A stretch of DNA of 64,000 bases from a bacterium (GCA_965261085.1 OZ253442.1:2432001-2496000); one strand, 5' to 3'. Shown: positions 10,689 to 54,028, counted from the first letter of the stretch. The notes: a model not told the origin generated them from the letters alone. Translations and numbers: made by a program.

Positions 10689-10867
10689 CCGACACGGGCT
10701 CGCCTGTATGCGCAGGCGTTATAATTGCTCCGCTTTCGATTTGATTACGGATGCCAGTAGGCGGATTCCGGACAAAACTGGGAGTAACGATTATTTCCCA
10801 ATGATATCAACAGGATATAAGGATTCCTTCGCCGATAAAAAAACTTCTCCGCCTCTATGCGGGCGAG
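10689..10867 (+). repeat. ~179-bp dispersed conserved element, copy 1
   Basis: CCGACACGGG...ATGCGCAGGCGTTATAATT..CGCTTTCGATTTGATTAC...AATGATATCAACAGGATA...GCGGGCGA. Aligns by eye with eight other copies. Confidence 0.9.
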
Positions 10868-10938
10868 AAGTGCTTTTTTTGAATGTGCTAATCTGACAAA
10901 TCCTGAGCACTGGATAGCAAGTATGTAAGTAACAAACC

Positions 10939-11200
10939 ATGAGCGATGTATTCGTCTTAGGCGCGGGATTCTCCAAAGCCACCTAAGAAGCAATGCCAAT
11001 AATGGACGAGTTAAGCAACGAGGCCCTCGGACGCCTTGGAGAGCTTGACTCATCTGTACCGCATTCATTGGAGAAACTTGGCAATAATGCCGAGCTTTGG
11101 ATGACCTATTTATCCAAGCCCAGCCTTGGCTTAAAAATTACGATAATGATCGTAATCGCTCGATTGCTAGCCGGATTCGTCAACAGATAAAAATACATTA
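10939..11200 (+). pseudogene. SIR2-like gene 5' remnant
   Basis: MSDVFVLGAGFSKAT*EAMPIMDEL... contains the SIR2-type GAGFS motif. There is an in-frame TAA at 10984-10986, an apparent frameshift before QPWL, and then truncation. Confidence 0.6.
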
Positions 11201-11325
11201 TCTCGTTCACCTAACCTTCGCCGTTGCTAACGCCCTCGGCGGCGCCATCCGAACCACCGGCCTTGAACTCAACCAAGAACAAGCCAATCCCCATCTTTGT
11301 GACAACCCAAAAATCGCTGCTTAGA

Positions 11326-12090
11326 CTAAATAGACCGACCTTCCCCCGGGCCTGTGCCTGATTTTGATCCATCAATTTTCTGGTGTTCTTCTTGTTTCTC
11401 TACCGAATGTCGGTTCATGGGTTGCCCGAAGAGTTTCCGATAACCCGGGAGGCAGGTACAGTCTCTTGCCCGTTCGCTGCCGAGGAGATTAATTATGTGC
11501 TCGGTGCTTTCGACGGGGACGCGCATTCTCCCATTGAGAAGCGCCAGATACAGAGCTTCGATAGCAGCAGTGTTCCCCAAGGCAGAAGTTACAGAGGCAT
11601 GGCAGAATAGGTCGATGGACCAGCCCGGTTTTCGCCCACACAGGACTTGGATGGCTTGTGCTCGCCCCTTTCGATCATCTATTAGTGGAAGGAACTGGCG
11701 TTTGGCCCCAATCGCAATCGTCGCGGCTTCACCATCGTCGAGGGATGGGGAGCCGGAGGTGAGATTGGCGAAGAGTGCATTCTCCTGGTCAGACATTTCG
11801 CCGAGCGTCACCTTACCTCCGGCTATTAGGCCATGTAAAAAACCGTGTTCGCCCTTATTGCGGCTCGTTTCGTGTTCGAGCTCCGCGGCTACGACCTGCG
11901 GAACAATGATGCCGTTGGGAATAGCCGCTAGAATACGCTCGCCGTAGCTACAGGCGTAGAGGTTAATCAGAACACTCGTATCGAGAACCAGCGGTCTAAG
12001 GTCATCAGCCAGGGAGTTTGAGTAGGTCATCCGTCTCGCTATCCTCAAGCTCGATCTGATCGATGATATTCCGCAGTTCGACGCGACCAA
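11326..12090 (-). CDS. PIN-domain ribonuclease-like protein (true start probably ~12030, MTYSNS)
   Basis: LVLDTSVLINL, LDDGEAATIA and IDDRKG motifs. It overlaps the end of the upstream HTH-ImmA gene. Confidence 0.8.
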   Translation of the reverse strand: MVASNCGISSIRSSLRIARRMTYSNSLADDLRPLVLDTSVLINLYACSYGERILAAIPNGIIVPQVVAAELEHETSRNKGEHGFLHGLIAGGKVTLGEMSDQENALFANLTSGSPSLDDGEAATIAIGAKRQFLPLIDDRKGRAQAIQVLCGRKPGWSIDLFCHASVTSALGNTAAIEALYLALLNGRMRVPVESTEHIINLLGSERARDCTCLPGYRKLFGQPMNRHSVEKQEEHQKIDGSKSGTGPGEGRSI

Positions 12091-13195
12091 CCTTAAGTAG
12101 TTCCGTCAGTTGGCCTTCTGACATGAGGCCACGTTTCCAGGCGGCATGGACCATCAGGCTCATCCGGTGGGAAATCGGACGGTCGGCGTCGGTCTTAGCA
12201 GGGTCAGGTCGATTGGCCATCTCGCCAAGCACCTCCCGCACGTGAGCCTCCGTAATGCTGCCGTTCTTCTCAAACCACTCCCACGTCCCTTTTTTCGTAA
12301 TGCCAAGCTCCTCCAGACGTAGTACGCATGCCTGGCGGGAGATATTGTATTGCTGGGAAAGTAGAATGATCAGCCGTCGGGTGGTCTTGCCAGTGATCTC
12401 TTTCAATTGCCGGAAGCTTTCTTTGAAGCTCTCGGCGGGCGTCAACAATGCGCGACCAAAGGCATTGGCGTAGCGCTCGTCGCGAGACAAAAACCTCTCG
12501 TCCTCTTTAAGTATTTCTGGAGTGTTGCGGGTCCCGTAGAAGTGGCCGAGTTCGTGCGCGGCCGACTGGATACGCCGAGGCAGTGGATGGTTGGCGTTAA
12601 GAAGAATACAGGCGCCAACGGTATCATCGTAAGTGAACAAACCCGCCACTTTTGATTTGGATGATAGGCGGCGTTGATAAAGACGAATGTCGAGACCCAG
12701 CTCTATGATCGAGAATATGTCGGCAATCGGCCCTGGACCGAGACCCAACCAGTCGCGAAACTCTTGGGCATGATTCTCGGCCAAAGTCAAAACGTTGCCC
12801 TCATTGATGCCGCGGTCCGGCGGATAGTTCCGGCGCCGCTCAATGCCGAGCATATTTTCCAACTCGACGTTCGCCTTAATCAGGTCATTGAAAAGCTGAA
12901 TGGCTTCAGCCTGATGCTTGTCCTCCGTTTCCCGCAGTCTCCGGAAGCGGGGCACGAGATCCGTATGAACGGCCTCGCGGCGGAGGAGGGCGTTCACCGA
13001 TACGCCGTAGTGGCGGGCCAACACTTGGAGCTCCTGAATACGTACACTGCGCGCCCCCTTCTCAATCGAGACCAGGGTCGGTCGTGACATGTCAATGAAC
13101 TGGGCTGCATCATCCTGTCGTATGCCCGCGTTCTCGCGCGCCAGCCGAAGGCGGCGGCCGATTTCCTGGGCGCTCAATTCATTCAGATCGGCCAT
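12005..13195 (-). CDS. XRE-HTH fused to ImmA/IrrE (HExxH) metallopeptidase
   Basis: N-terminal IGRRLRLARENAGIRQDDAA HTH, plus SAAHELGH and ERYANAFG. Confidence 0.9.
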   Translation of the reverse strand: MADLNELSAQEIGRRLRLARENAGIRQDDAAQFIDMSRPTLVSIEKGARSVRIQELQVLARHYGVSVNALLRREAVHTDLVPRFRRLRETEDKHQAEAIQLFNDLIKANVELENMLGIERRRNYPPDRGINEGNVLTLAENHAQEFRDWLGLGPGPIADIFSIIELGLDIRLYQRRLSSKSKVAGLFTYDDTVGACILLNANHPLPRRIQSAAHELGHFYGTRNTPEILKEDERFLSRDERYANAFGRALLTPAESFKESFRQLKEITGKTTRRLIILLSQQYNISRQACVLRLEELGITKKGTWEWFEKNGSITEAHVREVLGEMANRPDPAKTDADRPISHRMSLMVHAAWKRGLMSEGQLTELLKVGRVELRNIIDQIELEDSETDDLLKLPG

Positions 13196-14567
13196 AACGT
13201 CCTCCCTCCATCCAGCTCTTCAAGAAGCTTTGTTCTCCTTGGGCGGATAAAAATGCCCGCCATTCTTCCGCATGCTTCACCAGTAGAGTTCTCAGATTCT
13301 TCAGAGTATCTTGAAAGGTCGCACCGGTTGCTGCCGCGATTTCCCATACATGCACACGGAGTTCGTCATCTGGCAGAACTGCCATATCGGCTAGATGTTG
13401 CAAATGCCGCGCACCGACGCTGCCATACTCGACCATAATGTTCCGGTCGGCATTCTGCGGGATGATGGATAAGGCCTTGGTCACATCCGAAGTACTCAGA
13501 TCAGAAACCAAGTAGGTGGCTGGCATCTCGGTGACGGCGGCTGCGTGCAGACTCTGGCGTCTGAGCAGGCAGGCTGCGCATAGGCCGCAATGCTTCTTGC
13601 TGCCCCCGCTGTTCACGATTCGGCGGTTTTGCCAGCAGGAGCGCGTGCTGGTGAGGTCGTGTTCGCGCTTACCAGGAAGGTCCAGAAATGCCTGTAGCGT
13701 CTGGCCTTTCGTGTACCATAGGCGAGGCTGTTCGTAATAGACCTGATGGCGTAACAGCGTCTCAATGAACCGCTCCATCTTCCGGAAAAACGTCGGGTAG
13801 TTGCGGTAATCAGGGTAGATATTGTGAAGAGGCAGCAACACTGGGCCTAAAGCGCTCTGACCGCTCTCCGAAACCGTGATTCGGGTTACATTCGACAAGT
13901 GAGCGGCAATCGTCGTTACTGCCGCAAACTGAAACCCACGAGACCGGAAACTACTCTCGTTGCTCCGGTGTCCATGAACTTTGAATGGGATCTGAGAAAA
14001 GTAACTGTCACCGGTCTTCCTACGTTGGCGAAATTTTGTGAGCCGGATGCAAAGTGCTTCATCCCTATCCCCACTCAAAGCAGCGACTGCACGCGAGTCC
14101 AATCCGTCACTATAGGCGATAGCGAAGGTCTTAGTGTTCGGGAAGTTTAGAGCGCCTTGGCGCTCGCCAATCGGAGATGGGTTTTTCGCCTGCACGAAAG
14201 TCAATTTCCAATCATCACACGTAAGGTGACGTAGCACGTTATGGAGGCTCTCCTGCACTTCGTGATTTTGCCAAGTCTCAAGGTCAATAACCGGAACCAT
14301 CACGTGCAGGTTGCGATTCCAGCCCCGTGGGCGCTTCCAGCGACGGTCGGCAAACTCAATGGCCGCGCACAATACCAACAGGTCGTAGTGCACCGGCAGA
14401 AAACCCTTTACATCGAAGGTATCGAGAACAGTCGCGTTGAAGGTGATTTCTCGGCTAACCATAGCCGTCTCTACATCTTTCGGGCAGATATGGTCGGGCC
14501 TTTGGCCTTTCTCAATGACGTGCAGACGCTTGGCTTTCGTTTGTGAACCATTTAGTTCGGTGCTCAT
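13179..14567 (-). CDS. QueC-like (7-cyano-7-deazaguanine synthase / QatC-like) PP-loop protein
   Basis: PP-loop variant AYSDGLDS, SFRSRGF, YTKGQ, and the Zn cluster SCW...HCGLCAACLLRR. Confidence 0.8.
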   Translation of the reverse strand: MSTELNGSQTKAKRLHVIEKGQRPDHICPKDVETAMVSREITFNATVLDTFDVKGFLPVHYDLLVLCAAIEFADRRWKRPRGWNRNLHVMVPVIDLETWQNHEVQESLHNVLRHLTCDDWKLTFVQAKNPSPIGERQGALNFPNTKTFAIAYSDGLDSRAVAALSGDRDEALCIRLTKFRQRRKTGDSYFSQIPFKVHGHRSNESSFRSRGFQFAAVTTIAAHLSNVTRITVSESGQSALGPVLLPLHNIYPDYRNYPTFFRKMERFIETLLRHQVYYEQPRLWYTKGQTLQAFLDLPGKREHDLTSTRSCWQNRRIVNSGGSKKHCGLCAACLLRRQSLHAAAVTEMPATYLVSDLSTSDVTKALSIIPQNADRNIMVEYGSVGARHLQHLADMAVLPDDELRVHVWEIAAATGATFQDTLKNLRTLLVKHAEEWRAFLSAQGEQSFLKSWMEGGRYGRSE

Positions 14568-15139
14568 TCGTCGGGGCCCTCATCCACGCCCACTTTCATT
14601 CGAGTGACTTGCCTGAAGGCGCGTCCGTTGTCGGAGACCAGGGCGTCGCAGAGCTCGTTTGGTCTTATGGCACCAAAGGCTTCGTGGTTGCGCTCGATTC
14701 CTTTACGATAGTTCTCATGGTTCATGTCGCCGAGGTCACGAGCACGGATGCACTGCTCATCGAGTCGATTCTTGGTGATGCCGATCGAGTCCGTAACGGC
14801 GCTCAATATCGCCTGCCCCAGTGCTCTCTCGCCAGGAATCTGTTCTCGGAGGTTGGCAATCAGGTGTTTCTGGAGGATATTAGTTAGAGGCGGTTTCGCC
14901 TGGCCGTCGAAGATGGCCTCGACTGAGGAAATCGAGTCCATATCCATCTGTGGCCGCTGAGCGTGTGCTTTGAGTTCGTTCAAGAGCGCGCCAAACGCTT
15001 TCATGTCCACATTGCCGAGCATGCTGTGGCACGCCTGGGCGGCTCGTTCTTCCGAACTTACAGCGTCGTTCACGAGATCTTTGCCATACCGCTTCCATCG
15101 GCTGCTCAGCGCAGCGTTTCTGAACGGTCCATCCGTCAT
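14564..15139 (-). CDS. Hypothetical helical protein, first gene of the QueC operon (possible QatB-like partner)
   Basis: ORF track 14564-15151. A GGAGG SD favours the ATG at 15139 (MTDGPF...). It overlaps the QueC-like gene by 4 bp. Confidence 0.7.
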   Translation of the reverse strand: MTDGPFRNAALSSRWKRYGKDLVNDAVSSEERAAQACHSMLGNVDMKAFGALLNELKAHAQRPQMDMDSISSVEAIFDGQAKPPLTNILQKHLIANLREQIPGERALGQAILSAVTDSIGITKNRLDEQCIRARDLGDMNHENYRKGIERNHEAFGAIRPNELCDALVSDNGRAFRQVTRMKVGVDEGPDE

Positions 15140-15148
15140 CACAACCTC

Positions 15149-15187
15149 CATTGTCAGTATATTATTTTAATATACTGACAATGTCAA
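15149..15187 (-). promoter_or_regulatory. Sigma70-type promoter overlapped by a perfect 16-bp inverted repeat (operator)
   Basis: The minus strand reads TTGACA (15187-15182)-17 nt-TAATAT. The palindrome CATTGTCAGTATATTA-ttt-TAATATACTGACAATG spans 15149-15183. Confidence 0.8.
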
Positions 15188-15625: not shown

Positions 15626-15804
15626 ACGACACCGCCTCGCCTGGATGCGCGTGAGTTTGAATTCGCCCGCTTCCGTTTTGATTACTTATTACAGATAAGC
15701 GAATCCCCAACGAAGCTCCCAAAAACAAATATCCATAACAGTCTCAAGAAACTACAAGGACTTCAGAGCCGTTGGATACACCCCACCGTCTCTAAACGGG
15801 CGAA
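15626..15804 (+). repeat. ~179-bp dispersed conserved element, copy 2
   Basis: ACGACACC...GGATGCGCGTGAGTTTGAATTCGCCCGCTTCCGTTTTGATTAC...AAACGGGCGAA. Confidence 0.9.
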
Positions 15805-16022: not shown

Positions 16023-16985
16023 TTAGCTAAAGTTTGCGAAGAACGGCATGACCACCCTCTTGGTAGTCAAGGCTCTTTCTGGATAGAGCAAGATTAGGAT
16101 GTTGTAGGTCGTATCAAACGCTTCGGCGACACACTCATGTTGCTCACCGTTAATGTCGGTAATCGGGAGCGAAACGGGTTTTGTCATTCTGCGGCCAACC
16201 GGAAGCACCTGCCATAGAAAATGATCTGGCGTGACTGCATCGACAGTAGGTCGTCCGAATTGGGCAAGAAAAGCGGGCGAGGGTTCAATGCGTCGCACTG
16301 GCGCCCGGAACCCGGAACCTTCAATGTTCTCCATTGGGTCTAGAACAAAAACGACGCACGCTCTGTGGCTGGTGCGGGCAAATTCGCGTGTGGAGGCATA
16401 AATCGAGGCCCCAAATGTCCTGGCGAGTCTGATCGGTGTCTTGATCTCGAATGGGCAATCGGCGGCTTGTTTGGCGAAGGTGTTGCCCTTGAATAGTACA
16501 AAGCGCGCATAGTTGTTGGCTTCACGCTCAAATTGGTCGGCGACCTCGGGCTCTAGAGTCCTTTTGCAGTCCTGGAATATTCGAAACATCTTGCGGTGGG
16601 TCGGCATATCGTGATGTCCGGTTTCATGAAGCTTGAGAAAGGTCTGTTTTGATTCGACTACGGAATTATCAATATGGATGACGGTCTCACCCGCATCATA
16701 AAGCCCGAAAACCTTGCTTATCGCCGACTTGATTCGAACAGTAGTGTCGACGGTCTTGGCTTTAAGGTAAGAGAGTATGGCATCGGGGTCGAAAGCATTA
16801 GTGGGGACAATACCGACCTTTGCTGCAGTAAGAATGTCGTCGATTGGGGCCGGGAACCGGTTCCAGGCATCCGCGCGGTCGAGGAGTTGTCTAGCTCGCC
16901 CCTCGACCACGCGGAGATCCTCCGGGTCGAGAGCGCTGTCATCAGGTCTTGTCACGCGCCCGCCTCCTGCTGCGCAAGAACTCAA
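16023..16985 (-). CDS. ImmA/IrrE-family metallopeptidase (CapP-like)
   Basis: FLKLHETGHH and FEREANNYA. It lies directly downstream of a small HTH gene. Confidence 0.85.
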   Translation of the reverse strand: MSSCAAGGGRVTRPDDSALDPEDLRVVEGRARQLLDRADAWNRFPAPIDDILTAAKVGIVPTNAFDPDAILSYLKAKTVDTTVRIKSAISKVFGLYDAGETVIHIDNSVVESKQTFLKLHETGHHDMPTHRKMFRIFQDCKRTLEPEVADQFEREANNYARFVLFKGNTFAKQAADCPFEIKTPIRLARTFGASIYASTREFARTSHRACVVFVLDPMENIEGSGFRAPVRRIEPSPAFLAQFGRPTVDAVTPDHFLWQVLPVGRRMTKPVSLPITDINGEQHECVAEAFDTTYNILILLYPERALTTKRVVMPFFANFS

Positions 16986-17307
16986 GGTACTCCATCAACT
17001 CGGATTCTTCTTCGGGCGTCAAATTATACTCGGCGAATGTCGCCACCCGGCCGTGACGGTCATCGTCTGTACGTTTGGCCAACGACATGAGATAGCCAGC
17101 CTTATCCATGAGGTTCTCAAAGCTGACCACATAGATTTCGGCCAGGGAATGAAGGATGTTGGGAGAAGGTTTCCGGATTTTGTCATTTTCGATCTGGCTG
17201 AGATAGGCATTCGATACCCGCTTGTTAGTCGCCTCCTCGACTTCGCGCAATGTCATTTTGCGATCTGTACGAATAGAAGCGAGGTATTGTCCTAGTGTTG
17301 GCTTCAC
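16942..17307 (-). CDS. XRE-family HTH repressor (CapH-like)
   Basis: LGQYLASIRTDRKMTLREVE...SNAYLSQIEND...PSPNIL. It is divergent from the Ubl operon. Confidence 0.85.
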   Translation of the reverse strand: MKPTLGQYLASIRTDRKMTLREVEEATNKRVSNAYLSQIENDKIRKPSPNILHSLAEIYVVSFENLMDKAGYLMSLAKRTDDDRHGRVATFAEYNLTPEEESELMEYLEFLRSRRRARDKT

Positions 17308-17689
17308 GTTGCTCCCCTCCGTAGCGGGGCGGACATAGCTTCAACTCCCTGAAATGAATTGATAGTTAAAATTCTAGCTTCGATCGCTGGGCGAGTCAAG
17401 CGTGCTCGATTATTGCTTGATAAATATAGCACGCTGTGGAATAATAGCACCATGCCTGAACCATGGTGGTGCAGGTAGTGACTCTTCAAGGAGATAAACC
17501 ATGGAAATATCTCCTGATCTTGCCGTATCTGGGAGCGAAAATATCGAACAGGAGCCAGCATAATATGTCCTCTTTCTCTCTGGACCACATGTGGTGCCCT
17601 CCAATGAATTTTATCCAATTACTTGAATGTCGGCAGAACGTGCCCAAACAGATTACGGTGACGCATAGCCATAGGAAAGGAACACAGCC

Positions 17690-17977
17690 ATGAATGATAA
17701 GCCTGAATACCCAATTAATAAGCCTGTCGAGCCCGGCAAGACGGTTACGATCATCGTAAACGGCGTCGAAAAACCGGTGGAAGCAAGGTCTGAGCTGAGC
17801 TTCGACGATCTTGTTTTGCTCGCTTTCAACGAAAAACCGGGAAACCCGAACATCGTATATTCGATCACTTATACGAAGGCTGAAGGTGCCCAAGACGAAG
17901 GTTCATTAGCCCCTGGTAAGAAGGTTAAAATCGTAGATGGAATGATTTTCGATGTCGACAGAACTGATAAATCTTAA
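17690..17977 (+). CDS. Multiubiquitin-family ubiquitin-like protein
   Basis: VTIIVNG...LSFDDLVLLAF...YSITY...GSLAPGKKVKIVDGMIFDVDRTDKS is the multi-ubiquitin beta-grasp pattern. An AGGAAAGG SD precedes it. Confidence 0.85.
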   Translation: MNDKPEYPINKPVEPGKTVTIIVNGVEKPVEARSELSFDDLVLLAFNEKPGNPNIVYSITYTKAEGAQDEGSLAPGKKVKIVDGMIFDVDRTDKS

Positions 17978-19148: not shown

Positions 19149-19159
19149 AGGCCTAAACT

Positions 19160-19591
19160 GTGAAATGGGAACACATTTTTGTTGACACAATTCCAGCACA
19201 AATTGCGCCTCGTGTGCTGTACGTGTCAATCCGTTATCGGACTGCGAAACATTTATGCCCATGCGGTTGCGGTAGCGAGGTTGTAACGCCGATCCGGCCA
19301 AACAAGTGGAGTATCAGGTTTAACGGGAGATCCGTTTCGTTGTACCCGTCGATCGGTAACTGGAGCCTGGAGTGTAAATCTCACTACTGGATCAGAGAGA
19401 ACGAGATAGAGTGGGCAGAGGCGTGGAGCGATGCGCAAATTGAACGGGCTCGATCGAAGCAGCGTGTTGCGGACGCAAAATATTTTCGATCAGTGGATGC
19501 CGGTGAAGAGTGGAGTGAGCAGACGGTACCTATGAAAACTGTAGCGGCTTGGTTATGTAGAGTAGGAAGGTTCTTTCGTAGCAAGAAGTGA
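19160..19591 (+). CDS. DUF6527-family protein (putative Ubl-system peptidase)
   Basis: HLCPCGCG...VSLYPSIGNWSLECKSHYWI. It is the third gene of the Ubl operon. Confidence 0.8.
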   Translation: MKWEHIFVDTIPAQIAPRVLYVSIRYRTAKHLCPCGCGSEVVTPIRPNKWSIRFNGRSVSLYPSIGNWSLECKSHYWIRENEIEWAEAWSDAQIERARSKQRVADAKYFRSVDAGEEWSEQTVPMKTVAAWLCRVGRFFRSKK

Positions 19592-20130: not shown

Positions 20131-20308
20131 CCGACACGGACCCACTGGGATGCTCGGGAGTTGTAATGAATCCGCTTCCGTTTTGATTACTTACTGCAGA
20201 AAGCGATTCTCGAACGGGATCAGGAATTATGAATCTGTCCTAATAATATCAACGGAATAAGTGGATTTCACAGCCGTTGGAAATCGCCTAGTGTCTCTAA
20301 GCGGGCAA
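20131..20308 (+). repeat. ~179-bp dispersed conserved element, copy 3
   Basis: CCGACACGGA...GGATGCTCGGGAGTTGTAATGAATCCGCTTCCGTTTTGATTAC...AATAATATCAACGGAATA...AAGCGGGCAA. Confidence 0.9.
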
Positions 20309-22189: not shown

Positions 22190-22368
22190 CCGACATAGAC
22201 CCGCCGAGATGCGCAGGAGTTATAATTCGCCCGCTTGCGTTTTGATTACATTCTGCGGAAGGTGGATTCTGGACAAAACTGGGAGTAACGATTATTTCCC
22301 AATGATATCAACGGGATAACAGGATTTCAGGGCCAGTGGAAATAACCTAATGCCTCTAAGCGGGCGAT
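22190..22368 (+). repeat. ~179-bp dispersed conserved element, copy 4
   Basis: CCGACATAGA...GATGCGCAGGAGTTATAATTCGCCCGCTTGCGTTTTGATTAC...AAGCGGGCGA. Perfect 10-bp IR at 22227-22236 / 22358-22367. Confidence 0.9.
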
Positions 22369-24393: not shown

Positions 24394-24677
24394 AAAGTAA
24401 CACTATATGATCCTTTATGCAATCGATTTATATTATTGTGATAGCAGTACAAGGCTGACGCTGACGACGAGAAAGATGAGACTTTATCCAGGTAGCGAGC
24501 AGCAGATTGAGCTTCCCGATATTAAGCTTTGATCTTGTTCCCTTTTTTTAGGTTAAGGATTTGCTCGGATCGGAGCTACTAGTATTTATTCTGTAATGTA
24601 CATTGAACTCTCTGGACTTGACTTCTGCTCAACCCTAACCAACTTTCAGCTATAGTTTCTGGGTAAAACGAGATGCA

Positions 24678-25847: not shown

Positions 25848-25934
25848 TTGCGGTAAGCATTTCGGAAATTTACTTTCCCTGAGATGCGGAACTGCTCAAT
25901 CAACATTAAGCGGAGAACGGTATTTTTCTGAAAC

Positions 25935-27717: not shown

Positions 27718-27895
27718 CCGACAGGAACGCTCCTGACTGCGCGGGAGTTGTAATTCGCCCGCTTCCGTTTTGATTACTTTCTGCGTAAAAAAATTCCAGC
27801 AAGAGATTCGAAAAACAAATACCTACAATAGTTTCAACAAACTACAAGGATGTCACTGCCGTTGGAAATCCCCTTCCGCCTGAAAGCGGGCGGAA
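27718..27895 (+). repeat. ~179-bp dispersed conserved element, copy 5
   Basis: CCGACAGGAA...TGCGCGGGAGTTGTAATTCGCCCGCTTCCGTTTTGATTAC...AATAGTTTCAACAAACTAC...AAAGCGGGCGGA. Confidence 0.9.
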
Positions 27896-34025: not shown

Positions 34026-34942
34026 GCGCGCTTGTCCTTATTTGAATTATCCTTGAGAAACCATCTCACCAAATCGGCTACACCCTGTATTCGTCCTGGC
34101 TCAACGCTAGGCTAATAGCTACACCGGATGCTGGTGCACAACCCGCGGTTGCTGGTCGTGGTTGCGCGGTTCAATCGAATGTTGCGCATCACCTTAGCGC
34201 TGTGAAGAACAATAATATCTATCGGAAGCTGGTTCTGGCTGTATGAATGTCAAGCCTGTATAAACGCAGGGAATGTTAGCAAGCTGGTGTGTGGGTCAGG
34301 GAAAACAATCCACGAGATGGAATTAGAAAAACCAGTGTTCAACCAGCAGTTCTTGATGAGGTAGCACAATAGTTGGACAGAGATTCGCTTGGATACACGG
34401 GAGATTGAATTGCTCCGTTTCTTCCTTGATTGCATCTCATGGAAAGCGAATTCCCAACATGCTTTAGAACAATGAATCTGTCCCAACAGTATCAACAGGA
34501 TAACTGTATGTCACACGCTAAAACCCCTCTTCCCAAACCGTTAGGACAATAGATTAACGTAATTTCATTCATGGCAAAACGAAGTGGTGGCTGATCCGAT
34601 TCCAGCCGACCCACATGTTATGCCGGAACGAGAGATACCAAGACGCTTTTAGGAGCATTGTTGGATGTTTCACAGAGGTGCTCCGCGTCCAGCGGTACTA
34701 GTTCAGGGCCTGTTTCTGTTAAAAAGTCACTGGGATATTTGGATATGCGGTCAGAGTAGCGAAAGGCCGTATTCGGTAAGATCTCAGTGTTCAGTATATT
34801 GACGCACGTTGTCCTTCTGCTATCTCGGCCGATTCTAGCTGGACGCCCAATATAGCAATTCCTCCAATGGCGAGAGTTCCTCTATTCTGGCATCAATTTG
34901 TGAAAATCAGCTTGCAACCCTATGTTAAATTAACTCAATATT

Positions 34943-39163: not shown

Positions 39164-39342
39164 CCGACAGGGACGCTCCGGGATGCGCGGGAGTTTGAAT
39201 TTCCTCGTTTCCGTTTTGATTACATGCTGGAGGAGGGGGATTCCGAATGAGGTTCTGATAAACCATTTTTCGGCAATAGTTTCAATAAACTACAAAGATT
39301 TTACCGCTAATGGAAATACCCCAACGCCTGTAAGCGGGCGAA
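39164..39342 (+). repeat. ~179-bp dispersed conserved element, copy 6
   Basis: CCGACAGGGA...GGATGCGCGGGAGTTTGAATT...CGTTTTGATTAC...AATAGTTTCAATAAACTAC...AAGCGGGCGAA. Confidence 0.9.
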
Positions 39343-41546: not shown

Positions 41547-41552
41547 CTCCCT

Positions 41553-45400: not shown

Positions 45401-48400
45401 TCAGATAGCGTCCACCACTTCCTGGAACGAAAGAGTGTAGGTACCAAGAGACCGGCCGTGGGAATCTTCGGCCTGCGAGTGCCCGCCGCTTCCCGCAACC
45501 ACGTAATAGGTGGCGTCCTCGTCCGGCGTGAACGTCACGCGACTATTGAGGCCCTCGCCACTGTCACGGTCCCAGCTACGCATTATCTCGTTACCATCAG
45601 TATCGTGCATACCGTAAAGAAGCGGATTTGCCAGCGTTCCGCCGTCCGTTGCTGATCCCTCCATGTCGACTTGGTATCTCTTGCCCGCCTCGAGGATAAC
45701 GGCGAACCAGTCTTGGTCGCCCTGAGCCTCGATCTCGCCGACAACGGAGCCACCGACTTCGACCGTGCCGGTCGTGTCGACATCGTCCCTGAAATCGTCA
45801 ATCGATACTTGCACCGTGTAGGTGCCGACATCTTCGTCGCGGTAACCGCTCAGGTAACTCCCCGCCGCCACGTAATAGGTGCCGTCCTCATCGGGCGTGA
45901 AATACACTTGGCTGTCGGAACGAGGGCCGCTGGAGTAGTCGGTTGTGTCGGAAATAAGGCGACCGTCGGGATCGTGGATTCCGCGAATATAGGGATTTGT
46001 CAGCGTTCCACCTCTACCACGCACTCCCAAGAGCTCGACCTTGTAGGTTTCTCCCGCAGTCAGCTCGACGGCAAACCAGTCGCGGTCGTCTTCATACTGG
46101 ATTTCGCCGGTGGCGGTACCGCCGACCTCTACCGTGCCGGTCGTGTCGACTGTCGCCGGCAAATCGTCCTCGATTTCCGTCACCCGCACAGTGTAAGTGC
46201 CGGTTTTGTGGGTACTGAAAGCGTCCACCGCCAGGTAGTAGGTGCCGTCCTCGTCCGCCGTGAAAAATGCTTGTTCATCTTCCCCGGCAAATATTTGCGT
46301 TAATTGACCGTTAATGTGAGTGTATGTCCCTGCGATGATTATTGCGTCAGATATTCCAGTGGCATAGCCGAGGGCCAGGTGTGGGCGGTTCATCGTTCCA
46401 CCGCCCGTCAGGACCCCACCCACGTCGATCTGGTACGTCTTGCCAGCCTCCAGCTCCACCGCGAAGTAGTCGTAGTCGCGCGCATATTGGATTTCGCCGG
46501 TGGCGGAGCCGCCGACCTCGACCGTGCCAGTCGTCCCCCAGCTATACGACGCGAAATCGTCTTCCCACACCCTCACCTCATAGGTGCCCAAGCTAGTGAC
46601 AGCGCTATCCGCCGCGATGTAGTATGTGCCGTCCGTCTCCGCGGTGAAGTGCACCCGGCTTGTGCCGCCGCCCGTGTGGCGGTCGACCGTGCCGGGTATT
46701 TGGTTGCCCTCAGCATCGTAGATGCCGCGCAAATAGGGGCGGTCCAAGGAGGTGCCGTCATTCGTCGAACGGCCTTTCAGATCGATTTGGTAACTTTGGC
46801 CCGCTGCCAACTCGACCGCAAACCAGTCCCAGTCGGTCTCATACTCGATTTCCCCGGTGGCGGTGCCGCCGACTTCGACAGTGCCAGTCGTGTCGACTGT
46901 CGCCGGAAAATCGTCCTCCATTTCCGTGACCCGCACGGTGTAAGTGCCGGTGCTGGTGAATTCGCCGTTGCTTGCCGCCACGTAGTAGGTGCCGTCCTCG
47001 TCCGGCGTGAAAAATACTTGGTCATCATCTACTCGGACACGTTGATTGTTTGGTCTCTCATAGATTCGATATCGGTCATATACGTTAGGAATACTATTAC
47101 CGTCGGCATCGTAAACACCGTGCAGGCGTCCGCTCGGCAGCGTTCCACCGCCCGTCCGGACCCCGCCCGTGTCGATCTGGTACGTCTTGCCCGCCTCCAG
47201 CTCCACCGCGAACCAGTCGTGATCGTCCGCAGACTCGATTTCGCCGGTGGCGGAGCTGCCGACCGCCACCCGGCCGGTTGTGGAGGTGTCGTCCGGGAAG
47301 TCGCCGCCGTCCGGCTCCGACGGATCCTCGGGATCCGGGTCCGGCGCCACGATCGGCGGCGAGGTGTCCGTCACCTCGACCTCGTAGGTGCCCCGGCCGG
47401 AAAAGATCCCCGCCGCGCCCGCCGCGATGTAGTGGGTCCCGCTCCCGGTCGCCGTGAAGGTCACCCGGCTGTTGTAGCCTTGGCCCCCGTCGTCGTTCGT
47501 CGTACGCGCAATGAGATTGCCGTCGGAATCGTGGATGCCGCCCAGATAGGGATCGCTCAGCGTGCCGTCGTCCGTGGGGCCGCCTCTCAGATCGATGACG
47601 TAGGTCCGGCCCGCCACCAGCTCCACCGCGAACCAGTCGCGGTCGCCGTTGCTCCCGACCTCGCCCGTGGCCGTGTCGCCGACCGCCACCCGCCCGCTCG
47701 TGGAGGCGCCCGCCGAGAAGTCCTCTCCGGAAGGTTCCGATACCGTCTGCGGCGTACTCTGATCCGGTTGCGCAACAGGCGGATCGACCTCCACCGGCTC
47801 ATCCACGTCGGTGACGCTGACGGTCGCGGTGGCATCGGTCGTCTGATCGCCGTCACTCGCCCGGACGGTCAGCTCGAAGCTGGTGGAACCGGTCTCGTAG
47901 TCCTCGCCCCCGCCCGTGTAGAACAGTTCGCCGCTGGCCGCGTCGATCTCGAACAGCTCCGCCGCGTTGCCGCCCTCGATGCTGTAGGCCACTGAACCGC
48001 CGTCCGGATCCGTCGCCGAGACCGTGCCCAGCGATATCCGGTTCGCGCTGCCGTCCGTGTCCTCCGCCAGATCGAAGCCGTAGCCCGCCTGCCCAAACGC
48101 CGGTGCTTCCGCCACGTCGGTGACGTTGACGGTCGCGGTGGTGTCGGTCGTCTGATCACCGTCACTCGCCCGGACAATCAGCTCGAAGCTGGTCGAACCG
48201 GTCTCGTAGTCCTCGCCCCCGCCCGTGTAGAACAGCTCGCCACCGGCCGCGTCGATCTCGAACAGCCCCGCCGCGTTGCCGCCCTCGATGCTGTAGGTCA
48301 CTGAACCGCCTTCCGGATCCGTCGCCGAGACCGTGCCCAGCGATATCCGGTTCGCGCTCCCGTCCGTGTTCTCCGGGAGTTCGAAACCGTAGAACTCAGA

Positions 48401-50986
48401 GCCGAATGCCGGTGGCTGCTGCTGAACCTGCTCCTGTTCCTGCGCCGATAACCGCTCCGCCTCCAACCGCGCCACTTCGGCCGGGTCCGCGTCGCCCACC
48501 CCGTAGCGGAATACATACGCGTTCGCACCCGCCTCCTGCGCCTCCACCCGTACGTAATACGTCCCCGCCAGCAGCGTCTCGCGCATCCACTCGTTCGCCG
48601 TGCCGCCGTTCGCGCCGCTGTGCAGCACGTTGCCCTCTGCGTCCTCCAGCACCAGGTCCGCATCGGCGTCCTGGCGCCGAAGCCCAAGCGCCACCTCGCG
48701 CGCCTCGCTCAGCGTGAACCGGTACCACGCCACCCCATCGGCGCCGCCGTCCAGCGTACCCAGCGGGAACCGCGGCGCCGCCAACCCCGTGATGTCCCCG
48801 AGATCCTCGGCCGCCGCGCGCGCCGGGTCCGGCTCCGCAACAGGCGGATTGCCCTCCACCGGCTCATCCACGTCGGTGACGCTGACGGTCGCGGTGGCAT
48901 CGGTGGTCTGATCGCCGTCACTCGCCCGGACAGTCAGCTCGAAGCTGGTCGAACCGGTCTCGTAGTCCTCGCCCCCGCCCGTGTAGAACAGTTCGCCGCT
49001 GGCCGCGTCGATCTCGAACAGCTCCGCCGCGTTGCCGCCCTCGATGCTGTAGGCCACTGAACCGCCGTCCGGATCCGTCGCCGAGACCGTGCCCAGCGAT
49101 ATCCGGTTCGCGCTGCCGTCCGTGTCCTCCGCCAGATCGAAGCCGTAGCCCGCCTGCCCAAACGCCGGTGCTTCCGCCACGTCGGTGACGTTGACGGTCG
49201 CGGTGGTGTCGGTCGTCTGATCACCGTCACTCGCCCGGACAATCAGCTCGAAGCTGGTCGAACCGGTCTCGTAGTCCTCGCCCCCGCCCGTGTAGAACAG
49301 CTCGCCACCGGCCGCGTCGATCTCGAACAGCCCCGCCGCGTTGCCGCCCTCGATGCTGTAGGTCACTGAACCGCCTTCCGGATCCGTCGCCGAGACCGTG
49401 CCCAGCGATATCCGGTTCGCGCTCCCGTCCGTGTTCTCCGGGAGTTCGAAACCGTAGAACTCAGAGCCGAATGCCGGTGGCTGCTGCTGAACCTGCTCCT
49501 GTTCCTGCGCCGATAACCGCTCCGCCTCCAACCGCGCCACTTCGGCCGGGTCCGCGCCGCCCACCCCGTAGCGGAACACATACGCGTTCGCACCCGCCTC
49601 CTGCGCCTCCACCCGTACGTAATACGTCCCCGCCGGCAGCGTCTCGCGCATCCACTCGTTCGCCGTGCCGGAACGCTCGCTGCTGTGCAGCACGTTGCCC
49701 TCTGCGTCCTCCAGCACCAGGTCCGCATCGGCGTCCTGGCGCCGAAGCCCAAGCGCCACCTCGCGCGGCCCGCTCAGCGTGAACCGGTACCACGCCACCG
49801 CATCGGCGCCGCCGTCCAGCGCGCCCCGCGGGAACCGCGCCGCCGCCAACTCCGTGATGTCCCCGAGATCCTCGGCCGCCGCGCGCGCCGGGTCCGGCTC
49901 CGCAACAGGCGGATTGACCTCCACCGGCTCATCCACGTCGGTGACGTTGACGGTCGCGGTGGTGTCGGTCGTCTGATCCCCGTCACTCGCCCGGACAGTC
50001 AGCTCGAAGCTGGTCGAACCGGTCTCGTAGTCCTCGCCCCCGCCCGTGTAGAACAGTTCGCCGCTGGCCGCGTCGATCTCGAACAGCTCCGCCGCGTTGC
50101 CGCCCTCGATGCTGTAGGCCACTGAACCGCCGTCCGGATCCGTCGCCGAGACCGTGCCCAGCGATATCCGGTTCGCGCTGCCGTCCGTGTCCTCCGCCAG
50201 ATCGAAGCCGTAGCCCGCCTGCCCAAACGCCGGTGCTTCCGCCACGTCGGTGACGTTGACGGTCGCGGTGGTGTCGGTCGTCTGATCACCGTCACTCGCC
50301 CGGACAATCAGCTCGAAGCTGGTCGAACCGGTCTCGTAGTCCTCGCCCCCGCCCGTGTAGAACAGCTCGCCACCGGCCGCGTCGATCTCGAACAGCCCCG
50401 CCGCGTTGCCGCCCTCGATGCTGTAGGTCACTGAACCGCCTTCCGGATCCGTCGCCGAGACCGTGCCCAGCGATATCCGGTTCGCGCTCCCGTCCGTGTT
50501 CTCCGGGAGTTCGAAACCGTAGAACTCAGAGCCGAATGCCGGTGGCTGCTGCTGAACCTGCTCCTGCGTGACCGGCGGATCCTCGGAATCCGGGTCCGGC
50601 GCCACGATCGGCGGCGAGGTGTCCGTCACCTCGACCTCGTAGGTGCCCCGGCCGGAAAAGATCCCCGCCGCGCCCGCCGCGATGTAGTGGGTCCCGCTCT
50701 CGGTCGCCGTGAAGGTCACCCGGCTGTTGTAGCCTTCGCCCCCGTCGTCGTTCGTCGTACGCGGAATGAGATTGCCGTCGGAATCGTGGATGCCGCGCAG
50801 ATAGGGATCGCTCAGCGTGCCGTCGTCCGTGGGGCCGCCTCTCAGATCGATGACGTAGGTCCGGCCCGCCACCAGCTCCACCGCAAACCAGTCGCTGTCG
50901 CCGTTGCTCCCGACCTCGCCCGTGGCCGTGTCGCCCACCGCGACGGCGCCCGTGGTCTGTACGTCGGCCGTATAATCGTCAGGCAT
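45401..50986 (-). CDS. Large acidic repeat protein with PPC and cadherin-like domains (probable T1SS-secreted adhesin)
   Basis: 1861 aa. It has repeated DWFAVEL..G.TY PPC domains and cadherin-like units (SATDPEGG...FEID...DYET...VRASDG). It has no signal peptide and lies upstream of the T1SS genes. Confidence 0.88.
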   Translation of the reverse strand: MPDDYTADVQTTGAVAVGDTATGEVGSNGDSDWFAVELVAGRTYVIDLRGGPTDDGTLSDPYLRGIHDSDGNLIPRTTNDDGGEGYNSRVTFTATESGTHYIAAGAAGIFSGRGTYEVEVTDTSPPIVAPDPDSEDPPVTQEQVQQQPPAFGSEFYGFELPENTDGSANRISLGTVSATDPEGGSVTYSIEGGNAAGLFEIDAAGGELFYTGGGEDYETGSTSFELIVRASDGDQTTDTTATVNVTDVAEAPAFGQAGYGFDLAEDTDGSANRISLGTVSATDPDGGSVAYSIEGGNAAELFEIDAASGELFYTGGGEDYETGSTSFELTVRASDGDQTTDTTATVNVTDVDEPVEVNPPVAEPDPARAAAEDLGDITELAAARFPRGALDGGADAVAWYRFTLSGPREVALGLRRQDADADLVLEDAEGNVLHSSERSGTANEWMRETLPAGTYYVRVEAQEAGANAYVFRYGVGGADPAEVARLEAERLSAQEQEQVQQQPPAFGSEFYGFELPENTDGSANRISLGTVSATDPEGGSVTYSIEGGNAAGLFEIDAAGGELFYTGGGEDYETGSTSFELIVRASDGDQTTDTTATVNVTDVAEAPAFGQAGYGFDLAEDTDGSANRISLGTVSATDPDGGSVAYSIEGGNAAELFEIDAASGELFYTGGGEDYETGSTSFELTVRASDGDQTTDATATVSVTDVDEPVEGNPPVAEPDPARAAAEDLGDITGLAAPRFPLGTLDGGADGVAWYRFTLSEAREVALGLRRQDADADLVLEDAEGNVLHSGANGGTANEWMRETLLAGTYYVRVEAQEAGANAYVFRYGVGDADPAEVARLEAERLSAQEQEQVQQQPPAFGSEFYGFELPENTDGSANRISLGTVSATDPEGGSVTYSIEGGNAAGLFEIDAAGGELFYTGGGEDYETGSTSFELIVRASDGDQTTDTTATVNVTDVAEAPAFGQAGYGFDLAEDTDGSANRISLGTVSATDPDGGSVAYSIEGGNAAELFEIDAASGELFYTGGGEDYETGSTSFELTVRASDGDQTTDATATVSVTDVDEPVEVDPPVAQPDQSTPQTVSEPSGEDFSAGASTSGRVAVGDTATGEVGSNGDRDWFAVELVAGRTYVIDLRGGPTDDGTLSDPYLGGIHDSDGNLIARTTNDDGGQGYNSRVTFTATGSGTHYIAAGAAGIFSGRGTYEVEVTDTSPPIVAPDPDPEDPSEPDGGDFPDDTSTTGRVAVGSSATGEIESADDHDWFAVELEAGKTYQIDTGGVRTGGGTLPSGRLHGVYDADGNSIPNVYDRYRIYERPNNQRVRVDDDQVFFTPDEDGTYYVAASNGEFTSTGTYTVRVTEMEDDFPATVDTTGTVEVGGTATGEIEYETDWDWFAVELAAGQSYQIDLKGRSTNDGTSLDRPYLRGIYDAEGNQIPGTVDRHTGGGTSRVHFTAETDGTYYIAADSAVTSLGTYEVRVWEDDFASYSWGTTGTVEVGGSATGEIQYARDYDYFAVELEAGKTYQIDVGGVLTGGGTMNRPHLALGYATGISDAIIIAGTYTHINGQLTQIFAGEDEQAFFTADEDGTYYLAVDAFSTHKTGTYTVRVTEIEDDLPATVDTTGTVEVGGTATGEIQYEDDRDWFAVELTAGETYKVELLGVRGRGGTLTNPYIRGIHDPDGRLISDTTDYSSGPRSDSQVYFTPDEDGTYYVAAGSYLSGYRDEDVGTYTVQVSIDDFRDDVDTTGTVEVGGSVVGEIEAQGDQDWFAVILEAGKRYQVDMEGSATDGGTLANPLLYGMHDTDGNEIMRSWDRDSGEGLNSRVTFTPDEDATYYVVAGSGGHSQAEDSHGRSLGTYTLSFQEVVDAI
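47770..50566 (-). repeat. Intragenic tandem repeat, 1065-bp (355-aa) unit, ~2.6 near-identical copies
   Basis: Shadow ORFs recur at a 1065-bp offset (47869/48934/49999). CTGAACCTGCTCCTG occurs at 48422, 49487 and 50552. Confidence 0.9.
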
Positions 50987-51450: not shown

Positions 51451-51629
51451 GCGACTCGGACCCGCCAGGATGCGCGGGCGTTTGAATTCGCCCGCTTTCG
51501 TTTTGATTGCATGCTGGAGAAGGTGAATTCCTAACGGGATCGAGGAGAATGAGTATTTCTAAATGATGTCAATAAGATAAAGAGATTTCACGGCAGATGA
51601 GAACACCTCTATTCATCAAAGCGGGCGAC
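51451..51629 (+). repeat. ~179-bp dispersed conserved element, copy 7
   Basis: GCGACTCGGA...GGATGCGCGGGCGTTTGAATTCGCCCGCTTTCGTTTTGATTGC...AAAGCGGGCGAC. Confidence 0.9.
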
Positions 51630-52422: not shown

Positions 52423-52601
52423 CTGACAGGAAGGCTCGAGTATTCGCGGGAGTTATAATGAATCCGCTTTCGTTTTGATTACATACAGCGGAAGGCGAAT
52501 TCTGAACGTGAGTGGGAACTACACATGTTTCCCAATGATATCAGCAGGATAATAGGATTACAGGGCCGACGAGAATGCCTCTCCGCCTCAATGCGGGTGG
52601 A
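52423..52601 (+). repeat. ~179-bp dispersed conserved element, copy 8
   Basis: CTGACAGGAA...TTCGCGGGAGTTATAATGAATCCGCTTTCGTTTTGATTAC...AATGATATCAGCAGGATA...ATGCGGGTGGA. Confidence 0.9.
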
Positions 52602-52718
52602 AAAAACTTATGCAGAGTTTTTTTCGTCTGCTATTTGTTCTTTCCATACTAGCCACTTGCCAGAGGACGTTTCTTCATTTTCTTGATGCCCGAGAGGGCC
52701 CACGAGGGAGACATTGCG

Positions 52719-53744
52719 ATGAAACAGTACTTGGCCACCGTAGTATGCGCGATTGTTGTCTTGGTAATGACCGCAAGCGCCGCGTTCGCCGCCAGCGCGA
52801 CGCTGGAGACGGTGAAAAAGCGCGGCAATCTCATTTGCGGCGTCAACACCGGCCTCACGGGCTTCTCCTCGCCCGACGACAAGGGCGTCTGGAGAGGTTT
52901 CGACGTCGATTACTGCCGCGCCGTCAGCGCCGCTGTTTTCGGCAATCCCGACAAGGTGACCTACAAGCCGCTGACCGGCAAGACGCGCTTCCCGGCGCTT
53001 CAATCGGGTGAAATCGACGTTCTCTCCCGCAACACGACGTGGACCTTCAAGCGCGACGTGAACCTGGGCTTCGAGTTCGTGGGCGTGATGTATTACGACG
53101 GGCAGGGCTTCATCACCCGCAAGTCCCTCGGCGTCAAGAGCGCCATGGAGCTCGACGGCTCTTCGGTCTGCATTCAGACGGGCACCACGACCGAACTCAA
53201 TCTGGCCGACTATTTCCGCAGCAACAACATGAAGTTCAAATCGGTCGTCGTCGAGGACGCGGCCGAGGCGCGCCAGAACTACGCCGCCAACCGCTGCGAC
53301 GCCTACACGACGGACCGCTCCGGCCTCGCGGCCCAGCGCTCCGTGCTCAAGAACCCGGACGCGCACGTGGTCCTGCCCGAAATCATCTCGAAGGAGCCCC
53401 TCGGCCCCGTCGTGCGCCACGGCGACAACGTATGGGGCGACATCGCCCGCTGGGTGCGCAACGCGCTCATCGTCGCCGAGGAACTCGGCCTCACTTCCAA
53501 GAACGTCGACGCCATGAAGAAATCGAACAACCCCGAGATCAAGCGCTTTCTCGGTCAGGAAGGCGACTTGGGCAGCATGCTCGGCCTCTCGAAGGACTGG
53601 GCCTACAACGTCATCAAGGGCGTGGGCAACTACTCCGAGATCTACGAGCGCCACATCGGCCCCAAGACGGCCATCGGCCTCGCGCGCGGCTACAACAACC
53701 TGTGGACGAACGGCGGCATTCTCTACTCGCCTCCGTTCCGCTAG
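52719..53744 (+). CDS. aapJ: General L-amino acid ABC transporter substrate-binding protein (AapJ/BztA)
   Basis: Signal peptide, then GFDVDYCRAV, LSRNTTWT, YYDGQGF, ISKEPLGP, VGNY.E.YER and GGILYSPPFR. A GAGGGAG SD precedes the ATG at 52719. Confidence 0.9.
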   Translation: MKQYLATVVCAIVVLVMTASAAFAASATLETVKKRGNLICGVNTGLTGFSSPDDKGVWRGFDVDYCRAVSAAVFGNPDKVTYKPLTGKTRFPALQSGEIDVLSRNTTWTFKRDVNLGFEFVGVMYYDGQGFITRKSLGVKSAMELDGSSVCIQTGTTTELNLADYFRSNNMKFKSVVVEDAAEARQNYAANRCDAYTTDRSGLAAQRSVLKNPDAHVVLPEIISKEPLGPVVRHGDNVWGDIARWVRNALIVAEELGLTSKNVDAMKKSNNPEIKRFLGQEGDLGSMLGLSKDWAYNVIKGVGNYSEIYERHIGPKTAIGLARGYNNLWTNGGILYSPPFR

Positions 53745-53778
53745 GCTGCTTCTGCAACCGGTAACATGAACCCGCTCC

Positions 53779-53801
53779 GCCCTCGGGGATTTCCCCGGGG
53801 C
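53779..53801 (+). terminator. GC-rich hairpin after aapJ
   Basis: GCCCTCGGGGA-tt-TCCCCGGGGC. There is no clear U-tract. Confidence 0.35.
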
Positions 53802-53841
53802 CGGGCGGCGCGTTTGCAATGAGTGGATCGGTCGTATAATA

Positions 53842-54028
53842 GCGACGCGTATTCGCCGGGATGCGCGGGAGTTTTAATTGCTTCGCTTTCGTTTTGATTA
53901 CATACAGCGGAAGGCGAATTTAGAAAGAGACTGGGAACGATGAAAGCTTCCTAATAATATCAACTGGATAAATGGATTTCACAGCCGATGGAAATGCCCT
54001 AACGCCTCTTCGCCTCTAAGCGGGCGAA
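53842..54028 (+). repeat. Dispersed conserved element, copy 9 (187 bp owing to an 8-bp internal duplication)
   Basis: GCGACGCGTA...GGATGCGCGGGAGTTTTAATT..CGCTTTCGTTTTGATTAC...AACGCCTCTTCGCCTCTAAGCGGGCGAA. Confidence 0.9.

Follow-up and report, generated by a model that had tools for sequence, protein, structure and literature searches.

The CREE (Correia repeat enclosed elements) of Neisseria and the ERIC/IRU and BIME/REP families of enterobacteria are non-coding intergenic repeats of 100–180 bp. Their copies number from tens to hundreds, contain signals for promoters and terminators as well as sites where proteins bind, and mark points of rearrangement. CREE can generate promoters at their ends, bind IHF and control adjacent genes (PMC2649163). 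Members of the IS110/IS1111 group of insertion sequences (IS) have been described whose insertion targets are attC sites or conserved intergenic repeats, REP among them (PMC1525189, PMC11187229, PMC12288879, PMC11208160 and a 2026 bioRxiv preprint on ISPpu10), and in one of these reports the transposase of an IS110 member circularises a non-coding neighbour alone, with the formation of modular circles (PMC12288879). Here we describe an intergenic repeat of ca. 179 bp (which we refer to as the element) in a 64,000-nucleotide stretch of bacterial DNA (the window; OZ253442.1, positions 2432001–2496000, of assembly GCA_965261085.1), the host genome (G000) being a single contig of 4.27 Mb with 58.7% G+C from an uncultured genus. 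The reading we favour, tentatively and at somewhat less than even probability, is that the element is an old, lineage-wide, promoter-bearing repeat which belongs to a gene pool linked to integrative conjugative elements (ICEs), offers one IS its landing pad, and undergoes recombination among its copies.

An earlier note on this DNA had described nine fixed-length copies on the plus strand, given a consensus for them and listed the gene modules between them, and all three descriptions held: the nine stretches (E1 to E9, Table 1) align over 178–187 nt with a mean column identity of 76% and all lie on the plus strand, the consensus is essentially right, and the genes found in the modules largely match the list. 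An nhmmer profile built from these nine copies was run on the whole host genome (cut-off E ≤ 1e-3) and gave 48 matches, about 40 of them full length, with 29 on the plus and 19 on the minus strand; 38 of the 48 lie outside the window, on both strands. The copies are discrete, of fixed length, and have sharp edges against varied flanks. Within the window a partial plus-strand copy raises the total to ten, against 0.49 expected by chance in the 43.3-kb span, and an eleventh plus-strand copy lies 30.8 kb to the right of E9, beyond the window. Neighbouring copies less than 15 kb apart in the host genome are on the same strand in 21 cases and on opposite strands in none, at less than 35 kb the figures are 24 and two, and 37 of all 47 adjacent pairs agree (permutation p about 1e-4), one adjacent pair in these counts lying within a 100% identical duplication and not being independent. 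The co-orientation noticed earlier is therefore a property of neighbourhoods, and does not extend to the genome as a whole, where both strands are used. Orientation set by replication was considered and rejected, as orientation does not follow the replichores and, when clusters are taken one at a time, does not follow the local GC skew either (read by eye, roughly seven clusters agree and four to five disagree). Window copies share on average 66.7% identity with each other (45 pairs) and 66.1% with copies elsewhere (300 pairs), and seven of the ten have their nearest relative outside the window; since window copies are no more alike than distant ones, local tandem duplication was not the source of the array.

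Conservation along the element is uneven, with positions 21–60 nearly invariant and a second near-invariant set at 112–122 and 136–141. Read on the minus strand, this second set is (A/G)TGAAA, 17 nt, TTGATATTAT, with the consensus form TGnTAnnnT of a sigma-70-type extended −10. Extended −10 promoters are well established, and it is on this basis that we call the motif a promoter. Of 46 copies in the host genome, some 90% or more agree on one base at each of these positions: TG at −15/−14, A at −11 and T at −7. TGnnAnnnT occurs in 42 of the 46 and TGnTAnnnT in 24. The motif sits at its fixed place in 39 of 46 copies in the host genome, in 25 of 30 in the related genome G008, and in 19 of 20 in a second family of the class (G030/G032/G028), nine or ten of these 20 distant copies (those of G030) being near-identical and not independent for promoter conservation. 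A consensus promoter scan chooses the same site in E3, E4 and E9. The element can thus be classed among multi-copy non-coding intergenic repeats with conserved promoter signals, the activity of the promoter being predicted from sequence. On the minus strand the predicted start of transcription is near position 105; the transcript would cross positions 60 to 21, the most conserved block, and exit over the 5' edge.

What is conserved is the duplex sequence and its spacing, not a fold. RNAalifold on 38 copies found no consensus pairs on either strand, and hairpins chosen by eye, an inverted repeat at positions 11–28 and a long-range closing stem showed no more pairing than shuffled sequence, with 67.1% (66.8% shuffled) for the hand-picked helices and 78.5% (78.8% shuffled) for the terminal and long-range pairings; the consensus is palindromic in places, and the variation is not compensatory. 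A known Rfam RNA, which the earlier note had named as a finding that would overturn its reading, was not matched at gathering thresholds, nor at E ≤ 1. A structured RNA, a riboswitch and an attC-like folded strand were rejected on these grounds, having no consensus pairs, no pairing excess and no Rfam match; a small protein was rejected because the 38 copies lack 3-periodicity and at most six of them keep any one open frame. In some copies (E1, E7, E9) both ends carry outward-facing terminator-like hairpins, such sites being present on the plus strand in three of the nine window copies and on the minus strand in one; in the regions scanned they show no excess over shuffled sequence (20 vs. 22.4 and 11 vs. 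10.0), and a general terminator function was rejected, as the sites occur in a minority of copies and without that excess. These results bear on another explanation, that the copies are genes for a small RNA (ca. 100 nt or longer, with its own promoter) or transcriptional insulators that would end and restart transcription from one module to the next, their position at module borders being secondary. An extended −10 upstream of the most conserved 40-nt block is what such a gene would be expected to carry, and the outward hairpins of E1, E7 and E9 and the closeness of Peptidase_S24 genes to the element (below) speak for it as well; we nevertheless find it distinctly doubtful, since neither strand has a conserved secondary structure, there is no Rfam relative, the terminator-like sites do not exceed shuffles, and inspection of the sequence found no intrinsic terminator after the putative minus-strand transcript.

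Left and right flanks recur across the copies of the host genome, and one left flank identifies a user of the element. Left flank type D is an IS110-family element (DEDD_Tnp_IS110 and Transposase_20 domains) of the IS1111 kind with subterminal inverted repeats. Its left end lies 0–9 nt from element position 1 in three of the four full IS copies, where the distance is 7–9 nt, and in one remnant, and its transposase gene is always on the strand opposite to the element, that is, co-directional with the proposed promoter. This DEDD-transposase IS therefore lands at the 5' edge of the element in a position- and orientation-specific manner. Comparison with a paralogous site that lacks the IS gives an insertion of 1,610 bp with a 9-bp overlap. 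The IS copies are 95–98% identical to each other, whereas the elements they adjoin share 63–68%, which shows that the element is the target of the IS and not a part of it. Left flank types C and C' carry inverted copies of the right end of the IS, preceded in five of six cases by a CCGAC-like 9-mer, and are read as miniature IS derivatives. At four G008 loci, the part that matches the host genome is a 2.5-kb module which in the latter lies beyond the IS. On the other side of the element the commonest neighbour, R1, adjoins six copies including E6 and E9 (two of the six lie in the 100% duplication) and consists of one or two Peptidase_S24 genes convergent on the element; 10 of the 13 Peptidase_S24 matches in the host genome end less than 2 kb from a copy, nine of these less than 1 kb. 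Separately, a 160-bp repeat lies directly right of the copy at 195931 (host genome 196105–196264) and again at 951649–951808, with at least one occurrence in most genomes of the genus.

Of 41 related genomes, 21 carry the element: 17 of 22 in the genus, three of seven in the second family of the class and none of the 11 others searched. Identity within the host genome is about 66% and best matches between genomes reach 70–80%, so that copies within a genome are not the more similar ones. The IS is present in 13 genomes and the MOBF relaxase gene TrwC in 15, all of them carriers of the element, and neither occurs in any of the 20 element-free genomes, the related genomes not being independent samples for these counts. 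This co-occurrence of element, IS and TrwC points to one mobile gene pool that includes MOBF modules. The host genome has five TrwC genes (two within the duplication), all of them close to a cluster of elements and opposite in strand to the copies nearest to them. The element is not the transfer origin (oriT) of these MOBF modules: its position fits at one of four independent TrwC loci, and the others have no core match upstream even at E ≤ 10. Searches of plasmid and phage collections returned nothing resembling the element. In G030, a near-identical 586-bp unit is present at a minimum of nine dispersed loci in both orientations (e.g., L177 1569–2154); it joins element positions 1–168 to the final 117 codons of a transposase gene of the Mutator/IS256 family, has a sharp terminus, and as a chimeric repeat has multiplied recently in that genome.

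The adjoining IS and the repeated unit of G030 raise the possibility that the element is non-autonomous and is moved in trans by a transposase, as a hitch-hiker either of the IS1111/IS110 type (as ssr9 is of ISPpu9) or of the IS256 type. Its discrete, fixed-length copies with sharp edges and varied flanks would fit, as would its co-occurrence with the mobilome, the nine or more dispersed units in G030, and the published precedent of circles formed from a non-coding neighbour of an IS110 member (PMC12288879). Against this, the element has no terminal inverted repeats and no target-site duplication was seen; many copies exist in genomes where the IS was not found (15 matches in G013 and eight in G015); and the elements beside near-identical IS copies are only 63–68% identical to each other and hence did not travel with the IS. 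Presence or absence of the element alone was observed at none of 17 G008 loci compared with the host genome (a small sample from one genome pair), and matches to an empty target of the form CCGAC...GCGGGCGA are chance-like only and yield no empty-target family. The host genome holds no IS200/IS605 transposase, its sole Y1 gene being of the RAYT type with its own, unrelated REPs, on which account a REP/REPIN system driven by a RAYT or by IS200/IS605 was rejected. On balance we consider movement in trans unlikely. A MITE (miniature inverted-repeat transposable element), which the earlier note had held to be the answer should copies be scattered genome-wide in both orientations with target-site duplications, was likewise rejected: the scatter over both strands is real, but the two ends show no likeness to each other and no duplication was found at any of the 40 full copies inspected. 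The RAYT-type Y1 transposase gene itself (170 aa, host genome 484942–485454) is flanked by inverted GTAGGGAC...GGACAGGTCGCGACCTGTCC REP-like sequences, and together with the GGACAGGTCGCGACCTGTCC-type palindromes is a second, unrelated repeat system of the host genome.

For the window cargo at 9–46 kb, comparison with the three closest genomes (G004, G006 and G008) gave no counterpart except for element copies, weak matches to the type I secretion genes (66–72% identity) and a few 200–430-nt matches (68–89%) beside E1, E2 and E6; the cargo modules are independent acquisitions, each bordered by a copy. In G008, whose shared DNA is 94–97% identical to the host genome, 17 element loci were compared: at least four have an orthologous copy in the host genome, one copy is truncated by a deletion, and synteny breaks no more than 31 nt from an element end at six of the 17. 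At the orthologue of the copy at 195931, G008 carries 6.2 kb and one more co-oriented copy on the left, and the host genome has a deletion which begins inside a gene. A 24.9-kb G008-specific segment that ends in a copy was considered as an integrative island and rejected, as its ends lack direct repeats and the 10 of ca. 22 open reading frames (ORFs) scanned include no integrase; most of them encode transporters, alongside which are a peptidase, a TbpB-like protein and an RTX-repeat protein. A motif of ca. 40 nt, composed of two CGATAAAT repeats around CACGGGGTTTTT, occurs at ca. 22 places in the host genome (e.g., 1291938, 2852035, 3306700 and 3464696); it is found at synteny break points, marks host-genome sites where G008 has extra DNA, and replaces the last ca. 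20 nt of a sub-family of the element.

The copies themselves are mosaic. Within the host genome, tracts of identity linked to a shared flank end at about element positions 7, 20, 58–62, 87 and 127, and E7 follows the type-A lineage to about position 63 and from there the lineage of the copy at 1163455. An 11,170-bp inverted duplication with 100% identity (1155939–1167108 and 3711538–3722707) starts at element position 21; it contains a NikA-like gene, TrwC, TrwB, a gene for a 256-aa protein, one element, two S24 genes and a partial gene for a Calx-beta protein, and either arose very recently or is an artefact of the assembly. A core gene is also present between elements. The core aapJ-like copy of the host genome (1262915–1264100) is syntenic in G004, G006 and G008 and has no element nearby. 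Two extra copies have an element on either side: that from E8 to E9 is 98% identical to the core copy and that at 267756–269476 is 97% identical. The linkers of these two are shared as far as the 3' end of the element on the left and position 9 of that on the right, and the elements differ.

The earlier note had taken the array for an integron-like or tandem-att system of gene capture. Its supporting observations largely stand: copies do border coherent modules, as seen in the cargo without counterpart in the three closest genomes and in the six synteny breaks, and aapJ is indeed a module between elements, twice over. The mechanism it proposed does not survive, given that copies are spread genome-wide, lack a fold and an integron integrase, and have variable break points; what is left of that reading is the module borders and the extra aapJ linkage, without a fixed recombination site or a dedicated integrase. 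In its general form, this explanation holds that a dedicated recombinase moves modules as circles through a fixed crossover in the element. It draws on the 21 of 21 co-oriented close neighbours, on the unrelated modules bordered by copies, and on the aapJ unit found between elements at two loci with the same linkers. A P4-type tyrosine integrase gene (Arm-DNA-bind_3, SAM_3 and Phage_integrase domains) lies convergent ca. 240 bp from the 3' end of two copies, the right flank of E7 keeps a 33-bp remnant of that integrase module, and the 3' end of a tRNA-Ser(GGA) gene abuts one copy (host genome 995989–996250) tail to tail with a few bases of overlap, an arrangement kept in G008. The inverted repeat at positions 11–28 has its arms around a spacer of 8 nt, and positions 9 to 21 contain three junctions. 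On the other hand, break points range from position 7 to 127; an integrase adjoins only two of 48 copies; no fold is conserved; the 38 of 48 copies outside the island are often singletons between convergent core genes; and the 24.9-kb G008 segment lacks an integrase in the ORFs scanned. No integron integrase is present in the whole host genome, where the best TIGR02249 match reaches 84.4 bits (cut-off 265) and the top matches are Xer-like. Isolated short att fragments were not found, the 3' end motif having nine genome matches, as the element copies alone would give (their positions were unchecked). A tRNA-derived att core was rejected because the 5' 75 nt of the element match none of 52 tRNA genes, and an ARAGORN call of a tRNA-Pro, made up of a type-A flank plus the element itself, is doubtful. 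We rate a site-specific system of this kind as clearly improbable. Near each TrwC region tyrosine recombinase genes stand in adjacent pairs or trios (host genome 217974/219158; 1092552/1093744; 2394808/2396000/2396571; 3742313/3743264/3744452), the trio at 2.395 Mb being 36–46 kb left of the first window element; these may be recombinase-in-trio elements or ICE integration modules.

A bolder version joins the IS to this picture. The element would be the junction module of a non-integron cassette-exchange platform on MOBF-type ICEs, in which cargo modules, each with one promoter-bearing element, leave as circles and are re-inserted at any other copy; the enzyme would be either an integrase specific to the element or the RNA-guided IS1111/IS110 recombinase, which recognises the 5' edge of the element. 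Arrays of defence and host-interaction genes would result, co-oriented and self-expressing, into which core genes such as aapJ could also be taken up. We regard this as a long shot, with less probability than any of the explanations set out above.

Under the reading we favour, in which an old promoter-bearing repeat recombines with its own copies, dozens of 65–80% identical copies between modules would act as portable homology patches. We infer that the host homologous recombination pathway would do the work: exchange between copies would produce mosaic elements and leave the intervening DNA reassorted, duplicated or deleted, and a circle with one copy, on recombining with a resident copy, would accrete and yield two direct repeats, which would give local co-orientation without a dedicated integrase. 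The variable break points fit homologous exchange or gene conversion and not one fixed crossover, and conversion of whole copies would account for flanks that are 90–98% identical around elements of ca. 65%.

Several observations weigh against this account. Homologous exchange between 179-bp repeats of 65–80% identity should be inefficient and rare. Sharp junctions occur at the extremes of the element (R1 at position ≥ 161, the aapJ unit at 9/10 and at the 3' end), which is not expected of homologous crossovers and calls for whole-element gene conversion or another mechanism. One G008 cluster has five minus-strand and three plus-strand copies, including two head-to-head pairs. The lack of any clean presence or absence of the element alone at the 17 G008 loci counts here too. 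As for the promoter, the near-identity of about half of the distant copies has been mentioned, and no transcript is seen: in the four sequencing runs examined the element has no RNA cover, RNA contigs cover only 52773–53814 of the window (the aapJ gene), contigs of this kind cannot show transcription starts and do not bear on transcription of the element, and those over aapJ run on into the flank of the core locus, joints in the DNA run being cross-mapping between repeat copies. The gene downstream of the promoter faces the element in 21 of 33 copies and points away in 12, and 13 of 29 copies lie between convergent genes, all of these counts resting on a crude gene caller that misses many island genes; since downstream genes mostly face the element, the promoter is not generally that of the next gene.

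The features of the window are collected in Table 1. The units between copies measure 0.8–12 kb and are multi-gene with genes on both strands, the aapJ unit being the exception. Besides the modules listed there, the stretch at 16023–19591 has DUF6791+ThiF (E1-like) and DUF6527 genes beside small genes without assignment, and may be a ubiquitin-like conjugation defence system. A gene at 45401–50986, downstream of a type I secretion set (HlyD, ABC and OEP), encodes an 1861-aa cadherin/PPC-domain protein, and the ORF pattern inside it recurs every 1065 bp, which suggests that it holds long tandem repeats. Left of the array, the region 1261–7024 contains genes for a PLD-nuclease/SNF2-helicase fusion (1048 aa), an rve_3 DDE transposase (4938–6314) and an HNH endonuclease.

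Table 1. Element copies and neighbouring features of the 64,000-nucleotide window, in window coordinates unless the host genome is named.
Feature	Position	Strand	Basis or remark
E1, full copy; preceded by C'-type module of ca. 275 bp (IS-end-like mini element)	10689..10867	+	alignment, profile
Four-gene module left of E2; middle two genes HTH/M78 ImmA-like and QueC-like	11326–15151	-	outer two without Pfam match
E2, full copy	15626..15804	+	alignment, profile
E3, full copy with type-B left motif; promoter-like site 20271..20243 on minus strand	20131..20308	+	alignment, promoter scan
E4, full copy; promoter-like site 22330..22302 on minus strand	22190..22368	+	alignment, promoter scan
Five-gene run left of E5; AbiEii, AbiEi, PIN_12	22751–27672	-	Pfam supports three of five
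E5, full copy	27718..27895	+	alignment, profile
Tenth, partial copy, model positions 3–142	34376..34515 (host genome 2466376–2466515)	+	profile
E6, full copy; left, type-C mini element (ca. 121 nt); right, R1 module	39164..39342	+	
R1 Peptidase_S24 gene, convergent on E6	39433–39993		
E7, full copy; left, type-A module of ca. 383 bp; right, 33-bp remnant of integrase-bearing module	51451..51629	+	
E8, full copy; left border of extra aapJ-like copy	52423..52601	+	
Extra SBP_bac_3 (aapJ-like) gene with short flanks	52629..53814	+	98% identical to core copy
E9, full copy with 8-nt internal duplication; promoter-like site 53982..53954 on minus strand	53842..54028	+	
R1 module; two Peptidase_S24 genes, 54110–54586 and 54736–55230, convergent on E9	54029..55230	-	
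MOBF transfer genes; TrwC relaxase 59064–61919, TrwB/TraD coupling protein 61920–63869	59064..63869	- (opposite to elements)	

Short intergenic repeats are usually dismissed as junk or as REP-like terminators. Here three properties meet in one unit of a poorly known, uncultured lineage: a conserved internal promoter, a landing pad for an RNA-guided IS110-type element, and a place at the borders of defence and other cargo modules of conjugative elements. If the promoter is active, every module border would also be a transcription start and a landed IS would be expressed from the element; if copies exchange, they would provide an integrase-free route by which defence islands are reshuffled and core genes drawn into the mobile pool. 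The profile can in any case serve as an annotation marker of flexible regions in these genomes.

Set beside the known systems, the element has no sequence likeness to Rfam, plasmid or phage records, and shares parts of its behaviour with several of them. Unlike CREE, ERIC and REP it lacks terminal inverted repeats, a duplication of the TA type and a palindromic fold of the whole, and its copies are strongly co-oriented in islands and tied to an ICE-borne pool; whereas the promoters of CREE are formed at the insertion junction, that of the element is internal and conserved. Like the targets of the IS110/IS1111 group (ISPpu9, ISPpu10, IS621 and the IS1111-attC group), it is a repeated intergenic sequence used at one position and in one orientation, although the target is here a 179-bp unit without a conserved stem-loop in place of a REP hairpin (35–40 bp) or an attC site. 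With integron attC arrays and CALIN (clusters of attC sites lacking integron integrases) it has in common that co-oriented repeats separate promoterless-looking or self-contained units, that clusters occur at several places in the genome, and that the repeat is an IS1111-type target; however, it has no R''/R' core pair, no conserved folded bottom strand and no IntI, and also occurs as singletons between core genes. ICEs and cis-mobilisable elements (CIMEs) that accrete in tandem, and tandem islands at tRNA genes, similarly show direct repeats between unrelated cargo beside conjugation genes, and the P4-type integrases and the one tRNA 3' end would be at home there, but the repeats described here are full-length, ca. 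66% identical and mostly without an integrase, and their break points are not fixed. The element is thus new as a sequence family and unusual in that targeting of the IS110 type, a conserved promoter inside the unit and arrays of co-oriented copies in conjugative islands come together in it, and in kind it is a variant of the REP/ERIC/Correia repeats.

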